64,000 bases of DNA from Sporopachydermia quercuum (lineage: Eukaryota). The stretch spans positions 1,675,676 to 1,739,675 of the forward strand of contig BCGN01000004.1 in NCBI GenBank assembly GCA_001599295.1, written 5' to 3'. Shown in pieces: positions 7,804-42,900 of this stretch. Both the position numbers and the translations under genes were made by a program. Within the stretch, counting starts at the first letter, position 1. The number at the start of each line of letters is the position of its first letter. The notes under the pieces are model-generated. The model was not told the DNA's origin. It did no database searches and worked only from the letters and a program-made list of their open reading frames with translations.

Positions 7804-8583
7804 GACATGGTAATGGTGAATGGTGAAGAGATACTAAGAATGTGGAAAGGAATCTCGACTTAAACCATAAAAATTAATAGAAATTATTTATTATATATTT
7901 GAAAACTGATTAAGGAATAACCATTTTGACGTATATTAGAATGAATAAATTATAACATTGTTATGATATGTAAAAAAGAAAATAATACGAGAGATAATGC
8001 TCTCATAACTATCAATTGACGGAAGTATTGATGAGCTGAGGAATTACTATTATAAAGGCGAAAAACTATATCTACATTTATGTTATTTTCTATTGTTTAT
8101 TCTGAAAGTTTTTTATTGATTCTTATCTGTCCGTCATATTTGGTGCATCGAGGTTGATCGAATAGTAATCATTCTTCTTATATCAGTATGGATAATGATT
8201 TGGTAGAGGAAACGAATGTACGAACTGATTACTAGTTTATAGGATAAATAGCATAGCAGCATTAAGAGAGCATCGTTATCTACTACTACCAATCGTTCAG
8301 CGTTCTTTATCAATTCTAATAAAGAGCAGATTATAATTCAAGCTCTTCAGAATCTCAGTATTCGATCATCAGAAATATATTACCTTCAAACGTATTTCCT
8401 ACAGCAAAATTCAGTTTACAGGATTTATTGAAATGCNTAATCACTTTCCGAGCTTGTAAGTTAATACTGGTCTGAATAAACACATATCTTCCAACATTAT
8501 GAAGCTTATAACTACTAACGAATTCATTAACTATTTCCTAGTGTATTCATATATATATATAAACTATCGTATAATTTCATATT

Positions 8584-18613: not shown

Positions 18614-18792
18614 TTGCTTTCTTACTGTATAAGAAACTCATTAATAAACAAAAGAGTATCAATAAGTTTGAGAGACATTTTATTGCCATTACTTACGAAA
18701 GATAATAATTATATAATTAACTAACAGCAAATTATTCTTATATAGCTATAAATCAACCATTGTTTCAGCGTATCGTACATAATGCTAACAAA

Positions 18793-21183
18793 ATGTTCCA
18801 TAGAGCTATTGAAAGATCCAGCAGCTCTTCAGAGCAAAAGAGTTCTGTCTCGAGTCAAAAGGCTAGAAAGACACCATCAGGTAATCAGAAGCAAATGCTG
18901 CTTCCTTTCCAATCAACTAACCCAGAAGACAAAGCTTCTGCAAGCCCTTCATTATCATTAGCTCCAAGAAGTGTATCAGGAGCCTTCAAGCATCATAATC
19001 CAAGTATCAGTCTTAACAGAGCTTCATCATTCGCCTCAGGAACTAATATCACAACTACACAAGCAAGAATATCAACAGGAATATTTCATAGACCAACCAT
19101 AGAAAGAGCAAACGATTGGTCTAATAAGACTTCAATCGAGCTTATTAATTCATCTAAACAATCAACGCTGTTCTCAACCACTTCAGACAAATACTATTCT
19201 CGTTCAGCCAATGCTATTTCTCTAGATGACGATAGCCGGCTATTCAGAAATAAATCCAGTAATGAAGTAAATAAACAACAAACTTATATTGCAGGTGTGA
19301 GTGAAAAGAAAAGGTCTTTTCCNTGGACAAATGAGTCTTTGAATAAACAACGACTTGACCGGAAAAAACTGTTCCGCAACAATGATCGTAATCAGAAGAC
19401 AAGTTTGAATTTGAAAGAACTGGAAACGTCGAAATCTGATATATCATTAAGCGCTGAACAACAGAAGGTAATAAAACTAGTATGCAAAGATCACCGTAAC
19501 GTATTTTTCACAGGAAGTGCAGGTACTGGTAAATCTGTCGTTTTACGAGAGATCATACGTAGGCTTCAGCTTCAGTATGGCCCTGAAGCAGTTGCTGTGA
19601 CAGCTCCTACAGGTATTGCTGCCGTTAACATCGGGGGAACAACAATTCATCGTTGGGCAGGCATTGGCATAGGGAACTCACCTGTTTCAGCATTGATTTC
19701 TAAGATTAAACATCGAAAAGAGGCAGCTAATAGATGGTTGGGTACTAAAGTTCTGATTATTGATGAAATCTCAATGTTGGATAGTAATCTTCTATCGACA
19801 GTGGACCAGATAGGTAGATATATATTTGAGAAACATAATAAACCATTTGGAGGTATGCAGTTAGTTCTAACTGGCGATTTTTTTCAATTACCACCGGTGA
19901 AAAGTAAACAACTATGCTTCAATTCTGATTGTTTCCGAAATGCTATTCATACAACTGTTTTACTGAACCAAGTATTTCGTCAAAAGGGTGATATGGAGTT
20001 CATTGAAATGCTTAATGCTTTACGATATGGTAAAATGGACAACGATACAGTATCAAAATTTAGAGCTTTGGAAAGGACCGTTGAGTATAAAGATGGATTT
20101 GAACCAACTGAACTGTATCCAACTCGTGAAGAGGTTCAACGAGCCAATGAAGCTCGTCTGCATTCGTTGAAAGGTGATGTACATATTTTTAATGCTTTCG
20201 ATCAAGGTCCAGATTACAATAGAAATATGCTAGAGCATATTTTGGCACCAGCAAGACTTGTATTGAAACGTGGTTCTCAAGTAATGATGATTAAGAATAA
20301 AGATGCGACGTTAGTTAATGGTACATTAGGTAAAGTGCTATTTTTTATGACAGAACAAATGTTCACTATCCTTGAATCACGAGCTGGAGTAGCATTTGAT
20401 TATGATGATCCAGAATTTCTAGAAGACTATGAATTATTGTATCAATCGGTAAGACATGGCGAAGAATCTATAGAGCTTAANCAGAAGTTTCAATTGATGG
20501 ATTCTAAACGAAGAAACCTATTTAACAAGCTACTACAGGTGGGCAATAGAGTTCAGGAGTCTGATTTACTACCATTAGTAAGATTCTCAACTCCTGTTGG
20601 ATCTAGAGATGAACTTGTAGTGAGAGAAGAGTTCGAAGTCAGTGGTGGCACTCAGAACAGTAACGCTAAAGTNACTCGTACCCAATTGCCGTTAATTCTT
20701 TCCTGGGCACTCTCTATTCACAAATCGCAGGGTCAAACACTGGAAAGAGTGCGTGTTGATTTAGGCCGTATTTTTGAAATAGGCCAAGTATATGTAGCTT
20801 TAAGTCGTGCTGTTAGTAAAGACACGTTAGAAATTAAAAATTTTGATCCTAGAGTATGCAAGGCTTCAAAAGAAGTCATTAATTTCTATGAGAAGCTGAA
20901 AACTGGGGAACTGAATAGAGAATTACGCGATTGGAAACGTCAAGCAATCGAAAATCAGTATGTGAAAGAAAAGGAGACAGAAAAGATAATGAGTAAACAA
21001 GTTGAAGATTTCTTGAGCCTTTCAAAGGACAATAAAGAACTGCTATCACACCCGCATGGGATTTCTATCTCTCAAATCAATAGTTTTGGTTCCATAGCAT
21101 CTTCTGATTCAATTGGTGATGTGAAACCTACTGTGAAACTCGAGAAGAAAAACAAAGTGATTGATCTTTCACATTCGGATTAG
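18793..21183 (+). CDS. RRM3: Pif1-family 5'-3' DNA helicase, closer to Rrm3
   Basis: First ATG at 18793. Walker [30 protein letters not shown], Pif1 signature [36 protein letters not shown]. The stretches [10 protein letters not shown] and TKVLIIDE look more Rrm3-like than Pif1-like; the paralog assignment is less certain than the family. Confidence 0.85.
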
Positions 21184-22118
21184 ATTAGTGAATACGTATG
21201 TAATTAAAGCAATTGAAGACCTCAAATGAAAGAAAACCATCATGTTGCATCAAATGGTGATTTTTCCAATTTATGTCCTCGGATGTTTGTGTGATGTGCA
21301 CCTACAACAATAGACGCAGTTCTAACGAGCTACTCGTGTGACGTTGAATCATCCTTCAGTTACAATATAATATTATATAACACCCCATATTAAGTTATTA
21401 GGTTAGGGTGTATAATATAAACTATAATAAACTATAATCTAAACTCATATATTACCTCTTATATATATAAATAAATATAATTAAATAAGTATAAAAACTT
21501 ATTGCCATCACTGGTGCTTTAGGATTGTGAGGATCATTTTATTTAATATAAAATGACCGGGGACATCTATTAAATGGTTTTGAGTTAACTATCTTTGATA
21601 TAATAATATTNGAAGCAATAAAATTAATATAAAAAAAACAAAGGAACTATTGAATATAATAATGATATGGTATTTTTGTACTACAATAACCTAAACTTCC
21701 TACTAAATAATGTAGATATAATAGATATTCAGAATGTATAGATTCTTGATAAAACAAAATGCGAGTTCCTTTGTATCTTTTTTCTGCTTGACCATCAACA
21801 TATTAATAGTGTACCTTGTTCTACTCGTTGTTCCAGCTCTATCAATAGAAAATATATAGCCGAGTCATAGCTTTCAACGTTCAAAATTCTTTCAAATGCC
21901 TGAACCTACATTCCATGTATTGATTGATCGTATTCTTAGTCAAATCAACTACTATCGTACCTACATTCATTTACCATCATGAAATAAACATAATCCATAT
22001 AAGTATTACCATATCAAGCTTATTCAAAGATTATACCGAATGGCTTTCATTATTCCGGTTAAACATCATAGAATTATTTACCATACCTACATTACCATGC
22101 ATATAACATACATGAATT

Positions 22119-22127
22119 ATGACTCAT
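22119..22127. promoter_or_regulatory. Gcn4 site ATGACTCAT upstream of ODC
   Basis: Perfect 9-bp consensus about 510 bp upstream of the ODC ATG. ODC carriers serve lysine and glutamate biosynthesis. Confidence 0.6.
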
Positions 22128-22636
22128 GTACACAATTGCATAATTGTAAATATCATAATTACTTTCCCTATACGGTATCTATCCTTCAAAAACTATATAG
22201 TAAACAGTTTTAACCAAAAAAAAGAACCTTAAGAGATATAAACAAACCCATATACCGATATTTCTTAATATTTCCATATATANACCATTGCAAAGGCAAC
22301 TCTTACATACCTATCCAGCTTCGTAATAGTCCGTACTCCAGCTATCTTATCTCTTTATTTCTCCTTTCGGTATACTCTGTATNTCCATGCAGCTCAATGC
22401 ATAAGGCACCTAATGTACAGTTACCCCTCCATTTGTAGTAATACGCAAACCTTTGTCCAAAATTTCCAACATATATTTCATTCCTTCGCTGTTATAGACA
22501 TTTTTCTTACTGCTCTTCTAGAAAGAATAGATCAGGATGAACAGGAACAGGGAGTAACTATAGTTGAGTTTTGGCTATACATCTTGTTAGCGTAATTGGT
22601 TTATAATTAACAGAAACCTTTCAAAAGATCCGCAAA

Positions 22637-24069
22637 ATGTCTTCTGACCCTAAATGTATGTTCAAATAGGTGATCAATGGTAACTGAATACCTGGGAAGA
22701 ATTTGTAGGTGGAAAATCAAGCAAAGAAACTAACCAAGAAAAACGGAACGGAATCTTTCGGGGGGTGAAAGCGGATTTGATGTGGAAATATAAGAAGCGT
22801 GTTCGTGTGCTTTGTTGATATGTTGATGATACTGCTTATTCAATGNTCTTGTTAGCTGGTTCAGCTGCTGTATGTATTACCGGGAACTTTGTGGTGATTT
22901 TTCTTGTCACTTATCCGACATGTTTTCCGGTTTGTTTCGTTGAAGCAGTATAGACATATCAATTTGCGTAACAGATATCCGCTTGGCCACACATCCAGCT
23001 TTTATTTCCTGGAAGACCTTCGGTACGTTGTTTTCATGTTGTAGCTCTTCCATTTATTTACCAGTTTGCTGCTGGTGCNGTCGCCGGTATTTCTGAAGTA
23101 AGTATACGATGAAGAAATGAGTGATGTACAGTTAATTGTTGCTGTTGCTGTCGCTGTTATTTACTGTTGTAATATTATAACGTTGAATAGTTGAATATTG
23201 AGTTCAACTACGGAATATGATCATTTACTAATAATACACCATAGATCCTGGTGATGTACCCTCTAGATGTAGTCAAAACCAGAATTCAATTGCAAGTGGG
23301 CGGTGGCAGTGGTGCCAATTCTTACAACGGGATGCTTGATTGTATCGTGAAAATCGTTAAGAATGAAGGGTTTGCTACTTTATATAGAGGTATCACTGCT
23401 CCTATCCTTATGGAAGCTCCAAAAAGAGCCACCAAATTTGCTGCCAATGATGAATGGGGAAAATTTTACAAGGAAGCATTTGGCGTTAAGGAAATGACTC
23501 AATCTCTGTCAGTTCTAACTGGTGCTACTGCTGGTGCCACTGAATCGTTTATTGTTGTTCCTTTTGAATTAGTTAAGATTCGTCTTCAAGATAAAGCATC
23601 CGCAGGTAAATATANCGGTATGGCTGATGTGTTACGTAAAACGATTCAAGCTGAAGGTCTCTTGGGTCTCTACAATGGTTTAGAAGCTACCCTCTGGAGG
23701 CATATTTCCTGGAATGCTGGTTATTTTGGATCTATTTTCAAAATTAGGGAAATCATCAAGGGTGGATATTCAACCGGCAACAAAACCGCCGATGACTTGA
23801 TTTCTGGTGCTGTTGGTGGTACTATTGGTACTACTTTCAATACACCCTTTGATGTTGTTAAGTCAAGAATCCAAAACACTGTCAAGAAAGCCGGTGAGAC
23901 TCCTAAATACAACTGGACTTTCCCTAGTATTTTCACCATTGCCAAGGAAGAAGGGTTTGGTGCTTTATACAAAGGATTTACTCCTAAGGTCCTTAGACTT
24001 GGACCTGGTGGTGGTATTCTGTTAGTTGTGTTTACTGCTTGCATGGATTTCTTCCGTACATTACAGTAG
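22637..24069 (+). CDS. ODC2: Mitochondrial 2-oxodicarboxylate carrier (ODC1/ODC2 family); exons 22637-22655, 23045-23097, 23245-24069
   Basis: The spliced N-terminus MSSDPKSLPFIYQFAAGAVAGISEILVMYPLDVVKTRIQLQ matches the ODC family. Three PxD/ExxK carrier motifs and EAPKRATKF. Introns 22656-23044 (GTATGT..TAG) and 23098-23244 (GTAAGT/TACTAAT/TAG). Confidence 0.93.
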
Positions 24070-24499
24070 ATGGTTTACTACTTTGGTAGTATTAATGCTT
24101 TGCAATATAGTAGAACAATAATCGCATTTTAAATCAGGGCTATGAACGNAGGTGAGAAAAGGTTGCGTATAAGGAGACTGAAAGTCTGATGGTAGCAGCT
24201 TTACGAGATAAAAGTTCTAAGTGCATTGTCATTTGAGCTATCAGTAATCAAACAACATTGAAAACTACATACAAATGACCAGTTGAATTTACAGTAGAAC
24301 TCACAGTAGTGACAATAGTACTACGATTATTAATATGAAAACACTGTGTTTTTATACTGTGTTAATGCTATAAGTTTTCTAAATAGTAACCATAACCATA
24401 ACCATAAAAACCATTCTTCTCCTTACCTTTATGCTTATAATCATTAATGCTATAATTCTATTCTCTTTTTCATCATCATAATCAATATCATATCATTCT

Positions 24500-27400
24500 C
24501 TACCTTCTTCTATCACTTTTTAGTCTCTTNGAATATATTCTCATGACTGAATCATTATGTCTACGGTTATTGAAAATACCACTTTGAGTAGCTTTCATGA
24601 CTTTTAATCTTTCAAACCATTGCTTGAAACTATCCTCGGAAGCATCCCAGTGTTTAGCAATATTCAACGCCCAAAAAAACCTTTGCCTAGACCCTTGGTT
24701 TTGCCGTTCGCTTCGGTCTAGAAGTCCTTCAACTACTGCAACCGACATCCGCGAAGTTATCGGAAGACCCCGCTCCCGACACTCTTGTAGTAAAGTTCGG
24801 CATCGCAGCATCATTTGATTGGAATTCAGCACGGGAGATCTACTGAAACCAACAATTAGAGCCTCAATAGCCTTTCGGCTCAGTCTCGGAGTTCGAAACT
24901 CTTCAGACATTTCCGCCAACTGTCTAAACATATGCCGAGCAAGTTTTGGATAATTTATTGCACATTGAAATATAACTCGGATATATAGCTTTTTCTTCCA
25001 TGAATACTCCGGTAACTGAACAAGTAACTGATAAGCCGTAACTATCTGTCCTTTGGCTAGTAATTCCCCCACTGTCAGACCAATAATCGTTTGAACAGCC
25101 GGGGAAGATTCAAATGTCGATACAAACATGAAAATCGGTCTCAGGATTGGTAAATTGGCTTTCTTAGCTATCGCTGGGATTACGTAATCAAAAGACTTAT
25201 CACCGCCATCAGCAGGAAGATCACCATGATAATGACTGTTGGACTGTTTGCTGAATACTGTTGATTGCCGATTAGTAGTCTTTTTGTTGATTACTTTGTC
25301 TATGACGTTTGATAGTTGTTTAATGATTGTTCGTGATGAATATGCTATTTTNTTTTTTCTATCAGGACTAGTATTAGGATCAGTATGCTCAGCAGAATCA
25401 TCGATANTACTATTAACCGTATCTATCTTTGATTTATCATACAGTAGCTTTAATCCACCAACAAGGATCTTCATTGAAGATTGATTTATCCATATTTCAG
25501 AAGANTGAAAATAGCTATTATTGTCGTTATCAACTAAAGGCCTTTGTAGAATGTCGACCTCCTGCAGCACTAATAATTCTAGGTCCTTTGGTGTTAGCTT
25601 TTTATTACTAATAATTAGAAGTCTTTCCAATGGATTGAGTGTTCCAATCGTTGGAACTATATTCTCTATCACATCATTAGGAAACTCTTTAAAGCAAGGT
25701 GAACGATCAACTGTATTAATGATAATCCATAGAATATGCTTTGGGAGTATTGTANGAACNGTGCCAGTACTAGTAGTATGATTATCATCAATGTTGCTAA
25801 TATAGTTCATGTTACTTNTCTTATTCTTATTNATGCTCTTACTCTCTTCTTCTTGCATTCTTAATAGCTCCGTCGTAACTGTTCGTAATAAATGGTACCT
25901 CCATCCTGATGGTAATGCTGTCAGATAGGCTGTCAATCCTGAAGTATCTAGCATTGTTTGATATATTTGATAAGAAAAGCTCATTGCCTGGGAATGACTA
26001 GTACTATTTTCATGATTGGTACTGGTTTCATGAGAACTCTGAGAGATCAGCTTTGGTTCGGCTGTGTTNTAATTGGCTTTCTGTTGTATTAGCTTGGATG
26101 CGTTTTCAGAAAATTCACCACCCAGCTCAAGAATTCCGTTGACGAGAATTTTAGTTGCCAAAGAGAAGCTTATGTTGGAGATAGCGTTGACAACGTATTT
26201 TATTACTTGGGGTTTTTTTGATTTCAATGCCCGTTGAAGTAATCTTCTTGCCGATGAGGATGATGAGCTTGACAAATCACCGACAAGTAAATTAATTGGA
26301 GAAGGAGTAGAATTGCTGTTAGGGCTTGNGATAGTGTTGCTCGTATTNGTAGAGACTTCAATGATGTCAATACTATTAGTATTTATACTACCACAATTAT
26401 TTGCATTTATATTGTTACTAGTACTATTAACACTTTTAATATTGCTGACACTAATATAATTATTAGTATCATTGTCATTAGTAATAATTTCACTAGTATT
26501 ATTTTCCCTAACCTTCTTCTTACTAGTAGCATCAACATCATCACCGATATTTCCAACAATACTCTCCAGATCCAGNAGAGTAGAAACAGCCAGTTTGTCA
26601 CTGTCAGATAAATTCAATACACCATCTGACATAATTCTCACTGCTGCATTATTTCTCTCGGAAACAGCTTTTTCATGTGGTACGCCCATTGGTAAAGCTA
26701 CTCTCACTAATCGTAATAATACATCACGCGTATCTTCATCAGGGCTTACTTTNATATTCTTCACACTTTCTATTACTTTAGAATATTCTCCTAAAGCCAT
26801 GAGCCTTTCTAATACACATAGCCTTAAAGATAAGGCAAAAGAAGGATCAGCGCACAATTTATTCGGAGGATTCTGAAATGCCAGATCNATTGCAGGAAAA
26901 CGGCTTTTCAGCCTCCCGTTGGTATCAAGTTCATGAGAACCTCCCGAATGATCATTATAATGCGATTGNATTAATTCATTGAGGGTTTTTCGATCCCGAG
27001 ATCTCATGATTTCATTCAACAAGGTACCATGAGTAATAATGCTACTGAAATGAGCTTTTATGCGGGTGTTGCCATGTGATAGATCTGCTTCGTTAAGCAA
27101 TTGTAGGACCACTCGAGCATCTGTGAACCTGAGGAAAGAGCGAATAATTTCATAAAATGCAATATTGTAGTTATCGTGCTGTTCGATCCAAGGTAGAATC
27201 TTTTTATTGAATGCAATCAAAATATCAGCAAATGATCCTGTTTCTATCATGCAAATGACAGCTTCTGCATATAAACGCTTAGATAAAAGAGCGTCCATCA
27301 GCTTTTCTCGGTAATAATCTGGGATCTCGGATGCTTCGGGTTCTAATGTTTTCTTGATCCATCGGAAATAATCAAATAGAACTCGTACTGGAGTTCTAAC

Positions 27401-27907
27401 TTGGGTTTCCGGATCAAGCAGATATAATAGTTTTTCTCTATGAGATTGAAATTTGGCTGCTGCTCTCGCCGATTCTCTGGGCAGTTGAAATGTTTCTTCT
27501 GTATTCATAATGTTCGTGATTGTACTGAGGGCTTTATTTCTTAGACTAATGAGATCATTTTTCGTGGCATTGAGGAAAGGAAGTAGTTCGAAAGGAACCC
27601 TACGCTTTCGTGCTTCTTTTTGTTGCATTTCCAATGTGCCTGAGTTATTGAAAAACGTGCCTAAACTAACTTCAGCTTGCGCTAGAGGTGTAGATAGTTT
27701 TCCTGATGTGATTACTTGCGATTTTGACTNAGGTTCTGTCTCTGACTGTGAATGTGACGGGAACAACGAGCTGGNGTTGATATTGCTTTTATTGTGATCT
27801 TTAGTATACAATAGTCTGAACTGGNGTCTGTTAAACCAGCTTTCGCATGTAACATGATAGCCAGGGAGCAGCCGTGCCGGTTTTATACTGCTATAGCGTA
27901 CAATCAT
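24500..27907 (-). CDS. 1135-aa protein of unknown function, probably mitochondrial and alpha-helical, with Asn/Ser-rich insertions
   Basis: Long uninterrupted ORF. Arg-rich, acid-poor N-terminus resembling a presequence. No family recognised. Confidence 0.75.
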   Translation of the reverse strand: MIVRYSSIKPARLLPGYHVTCESWFNRXQFRLLYTKDHNKSNINXSSLFPSHSQSETEPXSKSQVITSGKLSTPLAQAEVSLGTFFNNSGTLEMQQKEARKRRVPFELLPFLNATKNDLISLRNKALSTITNIMNTEETFQLPRESARAAAKFQSHREKLLYLLDPETQVRTPVRVLFDYFRWIKKTLEPEASEIPDYYREKLMDALLSKRLYAEAVICMIETGSFADILIAFNKKILPWIEQHDNYNIAFYEIIRSFLRFTDARVVLQLLNEADLSHGNTRIKAHFSSIITHGTLLNEIMRSRDRKTLNELXQSHYNDHSGGSHELDTNGRLKSRFPAXDLAFQNPPNKLCADPSFALSLRLCVLERLMALGEYSKVIESVKNXKVSPDEDTRDVLLRLVRVALPMGVPHEKAVSERNNAAVRIMSDGVLNLSDSDKLAVSTXLDLESIVGNIGDDVDATSKKKVRENNTSEIITNDNDTNNYISVSNIKSVNSTSNNINANNCGSINTNSIDIIEVSXNTSNTIXSPNSNSTPSPINLLVGDLSSSSSSSARRLLQRALKSKKPQVIKYVVNAISNISFSLATKILVNGILELGGEFSENASKLIQQKANXNTAEPKLISQSSHETSTNHENSTSHSQAMSFSYQIYQTMLDTSGLTAYLTALPSGWRYHLLRTVTTELLRMQEEESKSXNKNKXSNMNYISNIDDNHTTSTGXVXTILPKHILWIIINTVDRSPCFKEFPNDVIENIVPTIGTLNPLERLLIISNKKLTPKDLELLVLQEVDILQRPLVDNDNNSYFXSSEIWINQSSMKILVGGLKLLYDKSKIDTVNSXIDDSAEHTDPNTSPDRKXKIAYSSRTIIKQLSNVIDKVINKKTTNRQSTVFSKQSNSHYHGDLPADGGDKSFDYVIPAIAKKANLPILRPIFMFVSTFESSPAVQTIIGLTVGELLAKGQIVTAYQLLVQLPEYSWKKKLYIRVIFQCAINYPKLARHMFRQLAEMSEEFRTPRLSRKAIEALIVGFSRSPVLNSNQMMLRCRTLLQECRERGLPITSRMSVAVVEGLLDRSERQNQGSRQRFFWALNIAKHWDASEDSFKQWFERLKVMKATQSGIFNNRRHNDSVMRIYXKRLKSDRRR

Positions 27908-29396
27908 GTTTCAGGGTGTCGACGCTTGAGCTCTGAGAAGAAAAAATATAGAAATGCGACATGTGGACTGCTTGAAATGTATATGACTGTATAGATAGAT
28001 AAATATGCCTATTGGAGCAATTTGTAACTGATGTTCTATCAGAGAAACGGTTGAAAGTCAAAATCAAACTTTGATATTGACTGTAGTAAGTGCATGAGTT
28101 GGTGAACAAAACTTGAAAGCCAAATGTAAAAAAATATATGAGCTATTATGCAGATCTAAGATCGTTTATGCTATAATTCACTCAAAAAGATATGACGGAG
28201 CATGTCCAGTTCAACTTCTCAACTACACATAGTTGAATATCCCAAATCTGTCAAAACAGTCACAGTCTCTTTTCTCATATATAGCCAAAAAATACTCATT
28301 TGTATTTCATTAACAAACTGCTGATATATAATGTTGATTTGATGGTTATAGCGGTTAGAACACAACAGGAGTGAAATTTCTTCAGATGATAGGGAAGCAG
28401 GGATATAATGATTAGATAATCAGAAATTAAGAGTGCGCTTACGGTATTACGTGAACAGTTAAGAGATGAAACGTATTTGGAAATTATGGATATGATAGGA
28501 AAATATTGTCTCCGATATTTGAGTACATATTATTCAAGTTCTTCTATTGGGCGGCCTGGAGAGAAGATTTATGGCGTGAGAATCAAATAGGACATTAATT
28601 TGTCAGGAAAGTGATATAATAAACTAGAGACAGCGAAGGTAGGGAATTGAGTGAAGCGGAAACTTATAAATTTGAGTTTGATACTACTGATTTATTAAAT
28701 AGTCTATAGACAATTAAAGTGAAGATGGGTGAAATACTTGTGAAAGCTATATATATTCTACTCAAGTAACAGAGCGAATCTTGCCGACATCAAGATCGAT
28801 CCAAGGGGCACTCAGGAGATAAATACAAAGAGCCAATCAAGTCAGGGTGGTAAATGATTATATAGACAATGTCACATCAGAAGGAGGAACTACCTATGGT
28901 AGACGTTGAGCATATGCTCGAGAAAGAAACAATATTCTTTCTTCGTAATGAGTACAGCCTCAATAAAAACATTGTCAAAAGAGTAATCTATATTTTTCAT
29001 ACCCCCAGTCGTTTATATAGTAGATTTTCCATCCATAAGAAGATCAAAATGTCACTACTTCCACTACGAAATGTAAAGTTTGGGACAAATGTATAAACCT
29101 GCAAAATCCGCATATGCATGGAAATCGTCGGAAACGTTAAATGTATGGCTTTGTTTGCCTTTTCTATGCTTCTCCATCGAGAAGGCATCTTTTCCTTTCA
29201 GACAACGAGACAGAAAATGGTTAAAAAGTATTAATGATTACTCATTGTCTATCAAATTCGAGTGGGAAATTGTTTTTTTTTGATCTTTGACACTTTCTTT
29301 TGAAGATTTCCGTAGTTGAAATTAATCGACGTGAGCTTCTTCGACTTTTCATCGGTATAGTACCAACCGTAATCGACAAGTTTTTTCATAGGCACA

Positions 29397-39954: not shown

Positions 39955-42900
39955 ATGTTAGAAGAATCGCCAAAAGGCTCTCCAAAGGCCAAAGAATGGG
40001 TTTCTCCACCTTTAGAACCGATTTCAAAAGTGAAATCAGAAATTCCAATGTCCACCCATAATTCTGCTTATAACAGTTGGAAAGGACAACCATTGGGCTC
40101 CGTGAATGTTGATTGGATCTTTCGTGCCGATTCTGTTTCGTCGGCAAGACGTAGAAACTCGTCTCTAGCAAGCATTCCGTCCTACAGTTTGGACTCTAAG
40201 GCTAAATCGGACTCTGGTAGTAAATCCAACTCTGACACTAATAAATCATCCGCTGCTAGCTCGGTAAACTCTTCGGCTAATAATTCGTCATCACAGTTAG
40301 GCTCAATACATGAAGATGATATCGGAGAAGATATACACAGTACAGTTCCTCCCTCAATTTCGGCTAATCGGAGATCTAATATATCGGTTGGATCCCCTAT
40401 GGGAGCTCGGCTTACGAGAACCATTTCAACCCCGCAACCAGTTTCAAGTCGAACAATGGAGAAGCTGACCCGGGAGTCCTCAATATCTACAGCCACGCTC
40501 CCATCAACAAAAGCAAAAAAAGGCGGGTTTTTTCATTCTTTGCATGCCAAAATCTCTGGGTCAAGGAATAGTGGAAGTAGTTCCCCTAAAGGATCGTCGT
40601 CATCATCGGCAGAACCTGGAAATAGTGCTGGATCTGGCCTTGGTTTATTCCGAACAAAATCACATGACATAGAGAGTCGTCTCCAGCGAACCTTGTCTAA
40701 TTCTGCGCTTCCTGAGAGTAAACTAGAAACAGGTTTCGGATCTGTACCGAACAAATCCAAGTCGAAGCCGATATCCATTCCAAGCTCGGTTCCGGCAACT
40801 CAAACTTTGTCTTCAAGTAATGCCACCGCCACAATGTCTCCGCCACATTGCGGCTCAGCAGGTACCGAACTTCGGAAAACGACGTCACAAGACTCAGCCG
40901 GATCTTTGGATAGCTCGAACACTTCGGGAGGAATATTTTCCTCTTTTAGAAAGAAAACCCTTAGTTCAAACTCTGTCTCCCATTATAAGGCAGCAAACAC
41001 CCGAATAATCCTTAATCAAAACAAATCCAGAACTGAAATTACCATTCCCGAGCTGAGAGACGTGAAACCACTCCGAAGAGTTCATTTCTCGATATCTACT
41101 TTCGATGATGATCCTCCGCAGTTGATTCCCGCCCGGAAACCTCGGAAGGGTAACGTTGAAATCACCGAAAACGGTCCCGTTATCCATAAGATGGATCCCG
41201 AGGATGAGTTGAAAATGCGGCAAGCGGCTCTTCCGAGAGCTCATTTGATTTCTTCAGTCCAACGAGATGCCCGAGCTAAAGCGGAAGCCCAAGCGGAAAT
41301 GGAAAGAAATTCTCCTCCATCTGCTGCCTCTGAAGACGGCTGTTGTCTTGACAAATCCAGTTCTGAAACAGGACCCAAGAAACCATCGGATAGGCTTCAC
41401 CATCCCGACGGTGAAATTGATAAAGAAGAACGGAAGAAAATGGGTATATCTGTACAAGATGACGACGTAGCTAGGTCTATTTCCGTAGCTGCCTCAGCTG
41501 CAGCTGCCGGAGCACGTGCTCGGTCTATCCCGGGCGAAGGTTCAGTGTCCGGAAGTAATGAGCCGGATGAGATTGAAATAGCGGAAAAGATGGCGGATCT
41601 CAAGATCGATAAGCCGATGATAAGTCGAAATAAGCTGAAATCGGCTACAACTGGAGCCGGAATAGATTCAGTGAAAATTGGAAAAGATAAAGCAACATCG
41701 GGTGAGACCGCTTCCGTTGGTACGTCATCCGTCGACGAAACCGAAAGCAGTACATCTAAACCGGAGAAGTCATCAGAAGTTGAAACTGAAACTGGAACTG
41801 AACTAGAAAGGGACCCCGATTCTTCCCAAAACCAAAATCATGCACAGCACGCAAAATCGTTACCCCCACACGTCATTTACACTCGTGTTTGTCATCTTCG
41901 GGAAATCTTGCCTATCCCAGCTATTCTAAAACAGGTGAAATCATACAAACACGCTCCGCTTTTCTCTTTACGGCTAGTCAACCCGAGACCAACCTTAATC
42001 GAAGTATTAACTTTTGCTGATTTCATTTCTATTGTACCGGTGTCTAACCTTGTTTTAGACAACTGCTCATTGACTTCCGAAATGTTCCGCATAATTTTAG
42101 CCTCATTAGTAAGTGCCTCGGGATTAGAAAAACTCTCCCTCCGAAATATGCTTATTGATTACGAAGGTTGGAAGTGTTTATGCTGGTTCATTACTATGAA
42201 CAAATGGTTATCTCGGCTAGATATTACTCAGTGTCCAACAGATGACGAGATCGCCCGAAGAGAAGCGAAGGAAAAAGCAGCAATTGAGAAAGATAAGGAT
42301 AAAGACGGACCACCTCGGATGAAGTCGGAAATTTCTAGCCGACATGATTGTGATTGGGTATTATTTACCGAAGCATTGGAAGCTCGGAACGGAATGGAAG
42401 AAATTATTCTCGGAGGCTGCAACGTGCCAACATTACAACAGTTTAAGGATTTACTATTCCTCGGATGTCTTCCGAATACCCGAAGGCTCGGTTTGGCTTA
42501 TAATAATTTAACTTTAGAGCAAGTGGAAGTAATATCGGAAATGATCTGTCATAGGAATTCTCTTTGTGAAGGTTTAGATCTAGGATTTAATAATTTACAT
42601 GGTAAATTAAAGCCGTTAATAATTGGCTTATCCCAATTAACGGAAATGCTACTATCTACGAATTACACTGGAAGTGATGCACCCACAGTTTTTAAGGATT
42701 CAGGAAATCAGACCCAAGGATTAGGTTTAAAGTTTCTATCTTTCAATTCCACAATTTTAGAACCGAGTGACGGAATAATTGAATTATTAGTTCAACTATC
42801 AAAGCTGCCACAATTAAAATACCTTGACTTCTCCTGTAATCCGGCATTATTTCCAGAATCCATATCATCTTTTACCTCATTGCTTCCTCTTTTCCCCCAA

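Follow-up and report, generated by a model that had tools for sequence, protein, structure and literature searches.

Several budding-yeast introns are spliced with the help of RNA structure that forms in the interval from the branch point to the 3' splice site (3'ss). The COF1 and UBC13 introns require a stem in this interval, as shown by compensatory mutants, and the stem both cuts the branch-to-3'ss distance and masks intervening AGs (Gahura et al. 2011, PMC3239191). In the part of that study considered here, stems are predicted for nearly all distant-branch introns of Saccharomyces cerevisiae and for other examples in the Saccharomycotina; for S. cerevisiae the median branch-to-3'ss distance is close to 31 nucleotides (nt), with 22 introns above 60 nt, and maxima of 166, 471 and 185 nt are given for Saccharomyces, Candida glabrata and Kluyveromyces lactis, respectively. 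Species with constrained spacing such as Debaryomyces hansenii (7-8 nt) are contrasted there with an unconstrained group. A link between short spacing and U2AF1 is discussed in the portions drawn on of two further reports (Hooks et al. 2014, PMC4202332; Schirman et al. 2021, PMC8496845), and, in the excerpted results of a third, downstream stems are given for 21 of 88 S. cerevisiae introns probed with dimethyl sulfate (DMS) (Rangan et al. 2025, PMC12350175). Here we describe the first intron of a gene for a mitochondrial 2-oxodicarboxylate carrier (ODC) in Sporopachydermia quercuum, located in a window of 64,000 nt (the whole stretch of DNA analysed; GenBank assembly GCA_001599295.1, contig BCGN01000004.1, positions 1,675,676 to 1,739,675 of the forward strand; all positions below are those of the window). 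We propose, at a probability of roughly 0.58 and on the strength of modelling and sequence comparison, that ODC intron 1 belongs with the structured distant-branch-point introns exemplified by COF1 and UBC13, a lineage-specific foldback lying within an older short intron.

The gene at 22637-24069 on the forward strand is assigned as ODC by similarity. The predicted product of exon 3 holds three Mito_carr repeats (PF00153, E 8.3e-64) and shows 70-76% identity with 2-oxodicarboxylate carriers of fungi over 274 residues, the best named yeast match in a protein search being Komagataella phaffii at 76%. Positions 22637-22654 translate to MSSDPK from a start codon in the context AAAATGTCT, and 23047-23097 to LPFIYQFAAGXVAGISE. 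Joining exon 1 in phase 1 to position 23045 yields a product beginning MSSDPK-S-LPFIYQF, in agreement with the N-termini MSDPKPLPFVYQF of K. phaffii and MSSDKKPLPFIYQF and MSNEKSLPFIYQF of Lipomyces. Upstream, a TAA at 22969-22971 closes the exon 2 frame, and the open reading frame (ORF) found there (22972..23112) has no ATG; a first exon must therefore be spliced on, and an intron is required. Among the 13 AGs between the branch site and position 23044, it is only the one at 23044 that puts LPFIYQF back in frame; the other 12 lead to stops after 6-53 codons. The donor and the TAG acceptor at 23044, on which the original prediction of an RNA-bridged intron was built, are thereby well supported, homology and frame being the sole grounds.

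The geometry of this intron is exceptional in one respect. CTAAY occurs once within it, at 22730, and the same is true of CTRAY; the motif scan thus confirms the earlier claim that AACTAAC at 22728-22734 is the sole canonical branch site, and the gap to the acceptor, put at about 310 nt, was measured as 311 nt. For comparison, 12 reference introns were kept from motif candidates elsewhere in the window on clear coding continuity, and candidates such as 8456-8541 (distance 23), 33544-33354 (distance 17), 34932-34606 (distance 24), 15160-15055 and 13731-13546 were left out as uncertain. All 12 reference introns contain CTAAY. They are 66-171 nt long (median 96.5), with 54-160 nt from the 5' splice site (5'ss) to the branch and 9-18 nt (median 11.5) from branch A to the G of the AG; the short spacing described earlier for 15 introns at 8-17 nt was thus upheld, the count and the range being revised. 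The 311 nt of ODC intron 1 is 17 times the local maximum, its 5'ss-to-branch spacing of 77 nt being ordinary. Removal of 22738-23035 leaves an intron of 91 nt with 77 nt before the branch and 13 nt after it, which is spacing typical of the window. A position weight matrix (PWM) built from the 12 reference sites gives AACTAAC at 22728 a score of 6.1, with 8.6-11.5 for the training sites, and a maximum of -3.5 in the last 60 nt of the intron. With AACTAAC as the presumed branch site, the 311-nt gap lies far beyond the ~50-60 nt above which a branch point is counted as distant. Intron 2 of the carrier gene is an ordinary reference intron. Elsewhere in the window, a canonical 66-nt intron at 59905-59840 on the reverse strand (GTATGT, TACTAAC, 11 nt to CAG) stands directly before an ORF that starts as ubiquitin.

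The sequence that separates the branch site from the acceptor is predicted to form one long hairpin. Folding was performed in ViennaRNA on 22735-23040, with 200 dinucleotide shuffles as controls; the N at 22846, inside the hairpin, was replaced by A and each alternative base was checked as well, giving minimum free energies (MFE) of -97.7 to -99.9 kcal/mol across the four, a change of at most 2.2 kcal/mol. The sense strand reaches an MFE of -99.9 kcal/mol, compared with -75.9 ± 4.5 in the shuffles (z -5.3), and none of the 200 equals it; for the reverse complement the MFE is -63.0 (z -2.7). Ensemble diversity is 33.9 vs 79.1 ± 20.9 in the shuffles, one of which (1/200) is as low, and the longest helix measures 19 base pairs (bp) where the longest in any of the 200 shuffles is 17. 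Every helix listed in the original prediction was recovered in the MFE structure. Its core stem, given as 23 bp with six G-U pairs and one bulge, retains the six G-U pairs and the bulge and is revised in length to 19 bp (22754-22772/22998-23016, probability ~1.0) followed by 3 bp past the bulged A 22997. Further helices are 22781-85/22987-91, 22795-99/22980-84, 22814-24/22953-63, 22829-36/22944-51 and 22879-86/22924-31, and the terminal loops are GUU (22859-61) and UUUUCUU (22899-905). The basal GAAAA/TTTTC helix is present when the region is folded alone and has a probability of 0.3-0.8 in longer context.

The hairpin was also compared with its surroundings and with its own two arms. Among 1018 sliding frames of 306 nt on both strands, placed on a grid that was phased on 22735 and so favours the hairpin region, it ranks second for lowest MFE, eighth for lowest composition-adjusted energy and first for the number of long-range pairs. 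When the arms are aligned with each other as DNA, nine transition differences are of the kind tolerated as G-U on the sense RNA and one is of the A-C type (binomial p 0.011). In these models the hairpin is more stable, better defined and more strand-biased than chance would give, and the sense transcript is favoured, as the earlier claim of a structure formed on the sense RNA had anticipated.

These features suggest the following mechanism. U2 would pair with the canonical AACTAAC, with A 22733 as the branch nucleotide, and the 298 nt after the branch site would fold on the sense RNA into a single, well-defined hairpin whose base lies 5 nt past the branch A and 9 nt ahead of the acceptor. The hairpin would bring UAG 23044 to ~13-15 nt from the branch, a spacing normally spanned by the spliceosome of this organism, and the internal AGs would be kept clear of the catalytic centre by their place up the stem. 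The hairpin itself may have entered an older intron of ~91 nt with 13-nt spacing, by foldback insertion or inverted duplication. We infer the use of AACTAAC, the formation of the hairpin in vivo and the need for it in splicing from the models and comparisons given above. The features of the locus are collected in Table 1.

Table 1. Exons, introns and predicted RNA features of the ODC gene (window positions).
Feature	Position	Strand	Description
Exon 1	22637..22655	+	ATG and five codons (MSSDPK), first base of split codon
Intron 1	22656..23044	+	389 nt, phase 1; GTATGT 22656-22661; TAG 23042-23044
Branch site AACTAAC	22728..22734	+	presumed branch A 22733; 77 nt from 5'ss, 311 nt from acceptor G
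Hairpin (predicted)	22738..23035	+	298 nt; ~100 bp in 17 helices; three-way apex
Core helix, 5' strand (predicted)	22754..22775	+	pairs with 22994-23016; six G-U; probability ~1.0
Core helix, 3' strand (predicted)	22994..23016	+	A 22997 bulged
Exon 2	23045..23097	+	two split-codon bases, then LPFIYQFAAG(A)VAGISE
Intron 2	23098..23244	+	147 nt; GTAAGT; TACTAAT 23226-23232, branch A 23231; TAG 13 nt downstream
Exon 3	23245..24069	+	274 codons and stop codon; three Mito_carr repeats

Comparison with relatives bears on the history of the intron. In L034, a yeast-like metagenomic locus of 64% identity, the equivalent place is occupied by an intron in the same phase, one codon further from LPF, which is 68 nt long (GTATGT...GGCTAAC, 15 nt to TAG) and has no hairpin. 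The gain of a foldback by an older short intron in the lineage of the window fits this single comparison. At the intron 2 position of L034 (2921-3000), TACTAAC is followed by an AG ~7 nt on, and a frame-keeping AG lies, as read by eye, ~38 nt from the branch A; the branch-to-AG spacing in that organism appears looser. The metagenome scan comprised 80 ODC loci, all at or below 76% identity, of which 49 have a genuine LPF-type motif, 29 have none and two gave spurious matches. An ATG is contiguous with the motif in 46 of the 49, and an upstream exon is needed in three, L034 among them. For L044 and L045 a pre-LPF intron is implied by the absence of an in-frame ATG, and a model drawn by eye is 31 nt long; no claim is made for it. 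Contigs from two studies of one organism (A), both of which may be where this DNA itself comes from, are identical in this region, and contigs of two others (B and C) align to exon 3 only, at <90% identity, none of them to intron 1. In the ODC contig of organism B an exon 2-like sequence (...GCCGGTGTCTCCGAA) is joined directly to exon 3, so that intron 2 is absent; many other fungal ODC loci retain an intron after the ...GVSE codon. The window itself is AT-rich (~37% G+C) and carries 73 scattered single Ns between 679 and 50481, including 22846, 23079 and 23615; contigs of one sequencing run stop at 23614 and resume at 23616, a pattern which suggests that single Ns mark variable or heterozygous sites.

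The effective distance and the fate of the internal AGs were evaluated by shuffling only the hairpin segment, with graph distance defined as the shortest path from branch A to acceptor G through the predicted structure. The native graph distance is 18 with flanks and 9 for the branch-to-3'ss segment folded alone; the shuffle medians are 24 and 13, respectively. When 300 structures were drawn by Boltzmann sampling at each temperature (25, 30, 37 and 42 °C), 99-100% of them had the branch A no more than 20 graph steps away from the acceptor. The short distance in full context arises in part from a predicted outer helix of 10 bp with three G-U pairs, GTAGGTGGAA (22705-22714, in the intron upstream of the branch site) with TTCCATTTAT (23048-23057, in exon 2), which has a mean probability of 0.86 and a duplex energy of -8.9 kcal/mol and would place branch site and acceptor within one loop. 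Of the 11 internal AGs at least 7 nt from the branch A, one (22793-94) is predicted to be fully unpaired, the shuffle mean being 1.6. Regulation by temperature, helicases or dsRNA enzymes had been raised as a possibility; a role as thermosensor is unsupported, the predicted pairing being nearly constant from 25 to 42 °C. Meyer and colleagues reportedly described a thermosensor in the APE2 intron, together with an effective-distance model, in Mol Cell in 2011; unlike that system, nothing in the ODC intron points to a temperature switch.

Several of these results weigh against the bridging interpretation. The graph distance is equal to or below the native value in 68 of 300 shuffles and in 67 of 250 (MFE), the ensemble-mean distance is matched by 16 of 250, and AG exposure is no greater than native in 124 of 250. 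Neither the collapse to ~12 nt nor the hiding of AGs, both offered earlier as evidence, is therefore distinctive: in these models a short effective distance and AG masking are generic for any 300-nt RNA of this composition. Being reproduced by shuffles, they should not be used alone as evidence of mechanism, a caution that extends to the reading of effective distances and masked AGs from predicted folds at large. The basal helices behind the figure of 13-15 nt have just the 0.3-0.8 probability given above, and the robust core by itself leaves ~50 nt between branch and acceptor. Seven other 306-nt frames fold relatively better after composition adjustment. One helix supplies six of the nine G-U-type differences between the arms, and the differences may owe something to a C-to-T bias linked to transcription. 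No relative above 76% protein identity was found in the protein search and the metagenome scan, so that annotated proteins of this organism and its near relatives are absent from the protein database. A degenerate yUnAy, TTCAT, is the one loose branch candidate near the acceptor, its A 23036 standing 8 nt before the G. Bridging by the hairpin is a plausible mechanism with precedent, but one made up of predictions throughout.

If A 23036 (in UUUUCAU) or a similar non-canonical site near the acceptor served as the branch, AACTAAC would be unused or a relic and the hairpin a passenger. TTCAT at 23033-37 does fit the loose motif at a distance near the local range, the acceptor is preceded by a U-rich tract, and long 5'ss-to-branch segments are described as frequent in yeasts in the part of the Gahura study consulted (PMC3239191). 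We nevertheless consider such a branch unlikely: each of the 12 introns accepted with confidence in the window uses CTAAY, no PWM score in the final 60 nt comes near the 8.6 or more of real sites, and the location of AACTAAC at a typical 77 nt, together with the typical intron that remains once the hairpin is removed, would be an odd coincidence. It is rather unlikely, too, that the hairpin is primarily a foldback element resembling a miniature inverted-repeat transposable element (MITE), or a processed RNA (a substrate of a double-stranded RNA nuclease or an unclassified non-coding RNA), with any effect on splicing being secondary. The existence of a discrete inverted-repeat unit of 298 nt that can be taken out to leave a normal intron, its absence from the equivalent intron of L034 and the length of the helix (19+3 bp) would suit this reading. 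The inverted arms are, however, present as a single copy within the 64 kb, other matches being no longer than 14 nt, and no target-site duplication is seen on reading the sequence by eye; the arms have diverged and the antisense strand folds much worse, unlike a young DNA palindrome. As for a processed RNA, a search of 22000-24500 against Rfam yielded no hit at E up to 5. An intron-hosted snoRNA, whether box C/D or H/ACA, is not indicated, and UGAUGA at 22824 has no CUGA downstream in the intron. Substrates of the yeast RNase III, Rnt1, have a stem capped by an AGNN tetraloop, and the two terminal loops found here are not AGNN. An inserted element would still need bridging for the intron to be spliced, so that this alternative mainly concerns origin; for the arms examined in the part of PMC3239191 considered here, no transposon homology is noted.

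Splicing in two steps, in which an intron internal to 22738-23035 leaves first and AACTAAC then adjoins the acceptor, appears highly improbable. Sequences resembling a 5'ss exist in the hairpin (GTATGT 22870, GTACGT 23023) and upstream of the branch site (GTAGGT 22705), and complex introns are described in the related yeast genus Lipomyces (in the part of PMC7138796 considered here). Such a stwintron-like arrangement was rejected, since the intron has no second CTAAY or CTRAY and the best internal PWM sites are weak (TGCTTAT, 2.9; CACTTAT, 1.3). The first AG past the branch A of CACTTAT (22913) ends at 22945, at 32 nt and thus beyond the local 9-18 nt, and no internal pair of donor and acceptor leaves the outer signals properly spaced. 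Quite improbable as well is a wrong gene model or an impaired locus, with intron 1 poorly spliced or unspliced, the gene decaying or another first exon in use. On paper there is an in-frame alternative at 22843-22875, where an ATG at 22843 is followed 27 nt on by GTATGT 22870, at the hairpin apex, and joining to exon 3 gives M?LLAGSAA|ILVMYPLD. This alternative is probably due to chance, as the conserved LPFIYQF segment would be skipped. The preserved state of the locus argues in the same direction, with exons 2 and 3 intact, the carrier region close to functional carriers over its 274 residues, a canonical GTATGT donor, the start context given above and an exon 1 matching the MS(S)DPK N-terminus of homologues.

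Other observations were made in the course of the scans. Upstream of the carrier, 18721-21183 on the forward strand holds an 820-codon frame with a GSAGTGKS P-loop that by eye resembles a PIF1-type helicase. The lowest composition-adjusted energy of the sliding scan belongs to 26235-26665 on the reverse strand (frame at 26360, residual -29.0), within a 1136-codon ORF at 24500-27910 on the same strand, and 40610-41540 on the reverse strand is among the lowest in absolute energy (frame at 41110, -103.0 kcal/mol). ARAGORN detected no tRNA across the window.

A stronger version of the bridging proposal would have the hairpin kept under RNA-level selection, as the sense G-U bias might indicate, as an obligatory bridge and a switch on the carrier. 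We regard this extension as unlikely on the present models. An early stop follows each of the 12 internal AGs, so that a condition or factor opening the stem would divert splicing to dead-end products, and if the extension were true the hairpin would act on a carrier linking mitochondrial export of 2-oxoadipate and 2-oxoglutarate to lysine and glutamate synthesis. If A 22733 were confirmed as the branch, the intron would offer a naturally occurring test near the top of the reported spacings, short of the 471 nt of C. glabrata; the reach of RNA structure in stretching 3'ss choice where ~9-18 nt is normal could be gauged from it, and it would provide a snapshot of the origin of such introns by foldback insertion into a short intron. 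ODC intron 1 introduces no new principle and its distance is no record within the budding yeasts; the notable features are the size of the hairpin and its occurrence among tightly spaced introns.

As far as the parts of the published work drawn on here allow a comparison, the proposed mechanism matches the documented COF1/UBC13 class (PMC3239191), the precedent invoked in the original prediction. ODC intron 1 shares with those introns a far canonical branch site and a stem-loop, here predicted, that fills the gap, would shorten the structural distance and contains AGs that would be silent. Its gap of 311 nt compares with 155 nt in UBC13, the second longest branch-to-3'ss sequence in S. cerevisiae (PMC3239191), and its stem is a single 298-nt hairpin on which dependence is predicted, whereas dependence was shown for COF1 and UBC13. 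Downstream stems of S. cerevisiae comprise at least 6 bp and come from probing in vivo (PMC12350175), compared with a composite hairpin of ~100 bp obtained here by prediction. The description of the stem as unusually long needs qualifying, as spacing of up to 471 nt is cited for C. glabrata; C. glabrata and K. lactis (185 nt, including the ACT intron) likewise have spacings of hundreds of nucleotides that are predicted to be structured (PMC3239191). The 12 companions of the intron in the window, at 9-18 nt, differ from S. cerevisiae with its median near 31 nt and, unlike the unconstrained C. glabrata and K. lactis, resemble the constrained group typified by D. hansenii (PMC3239191).

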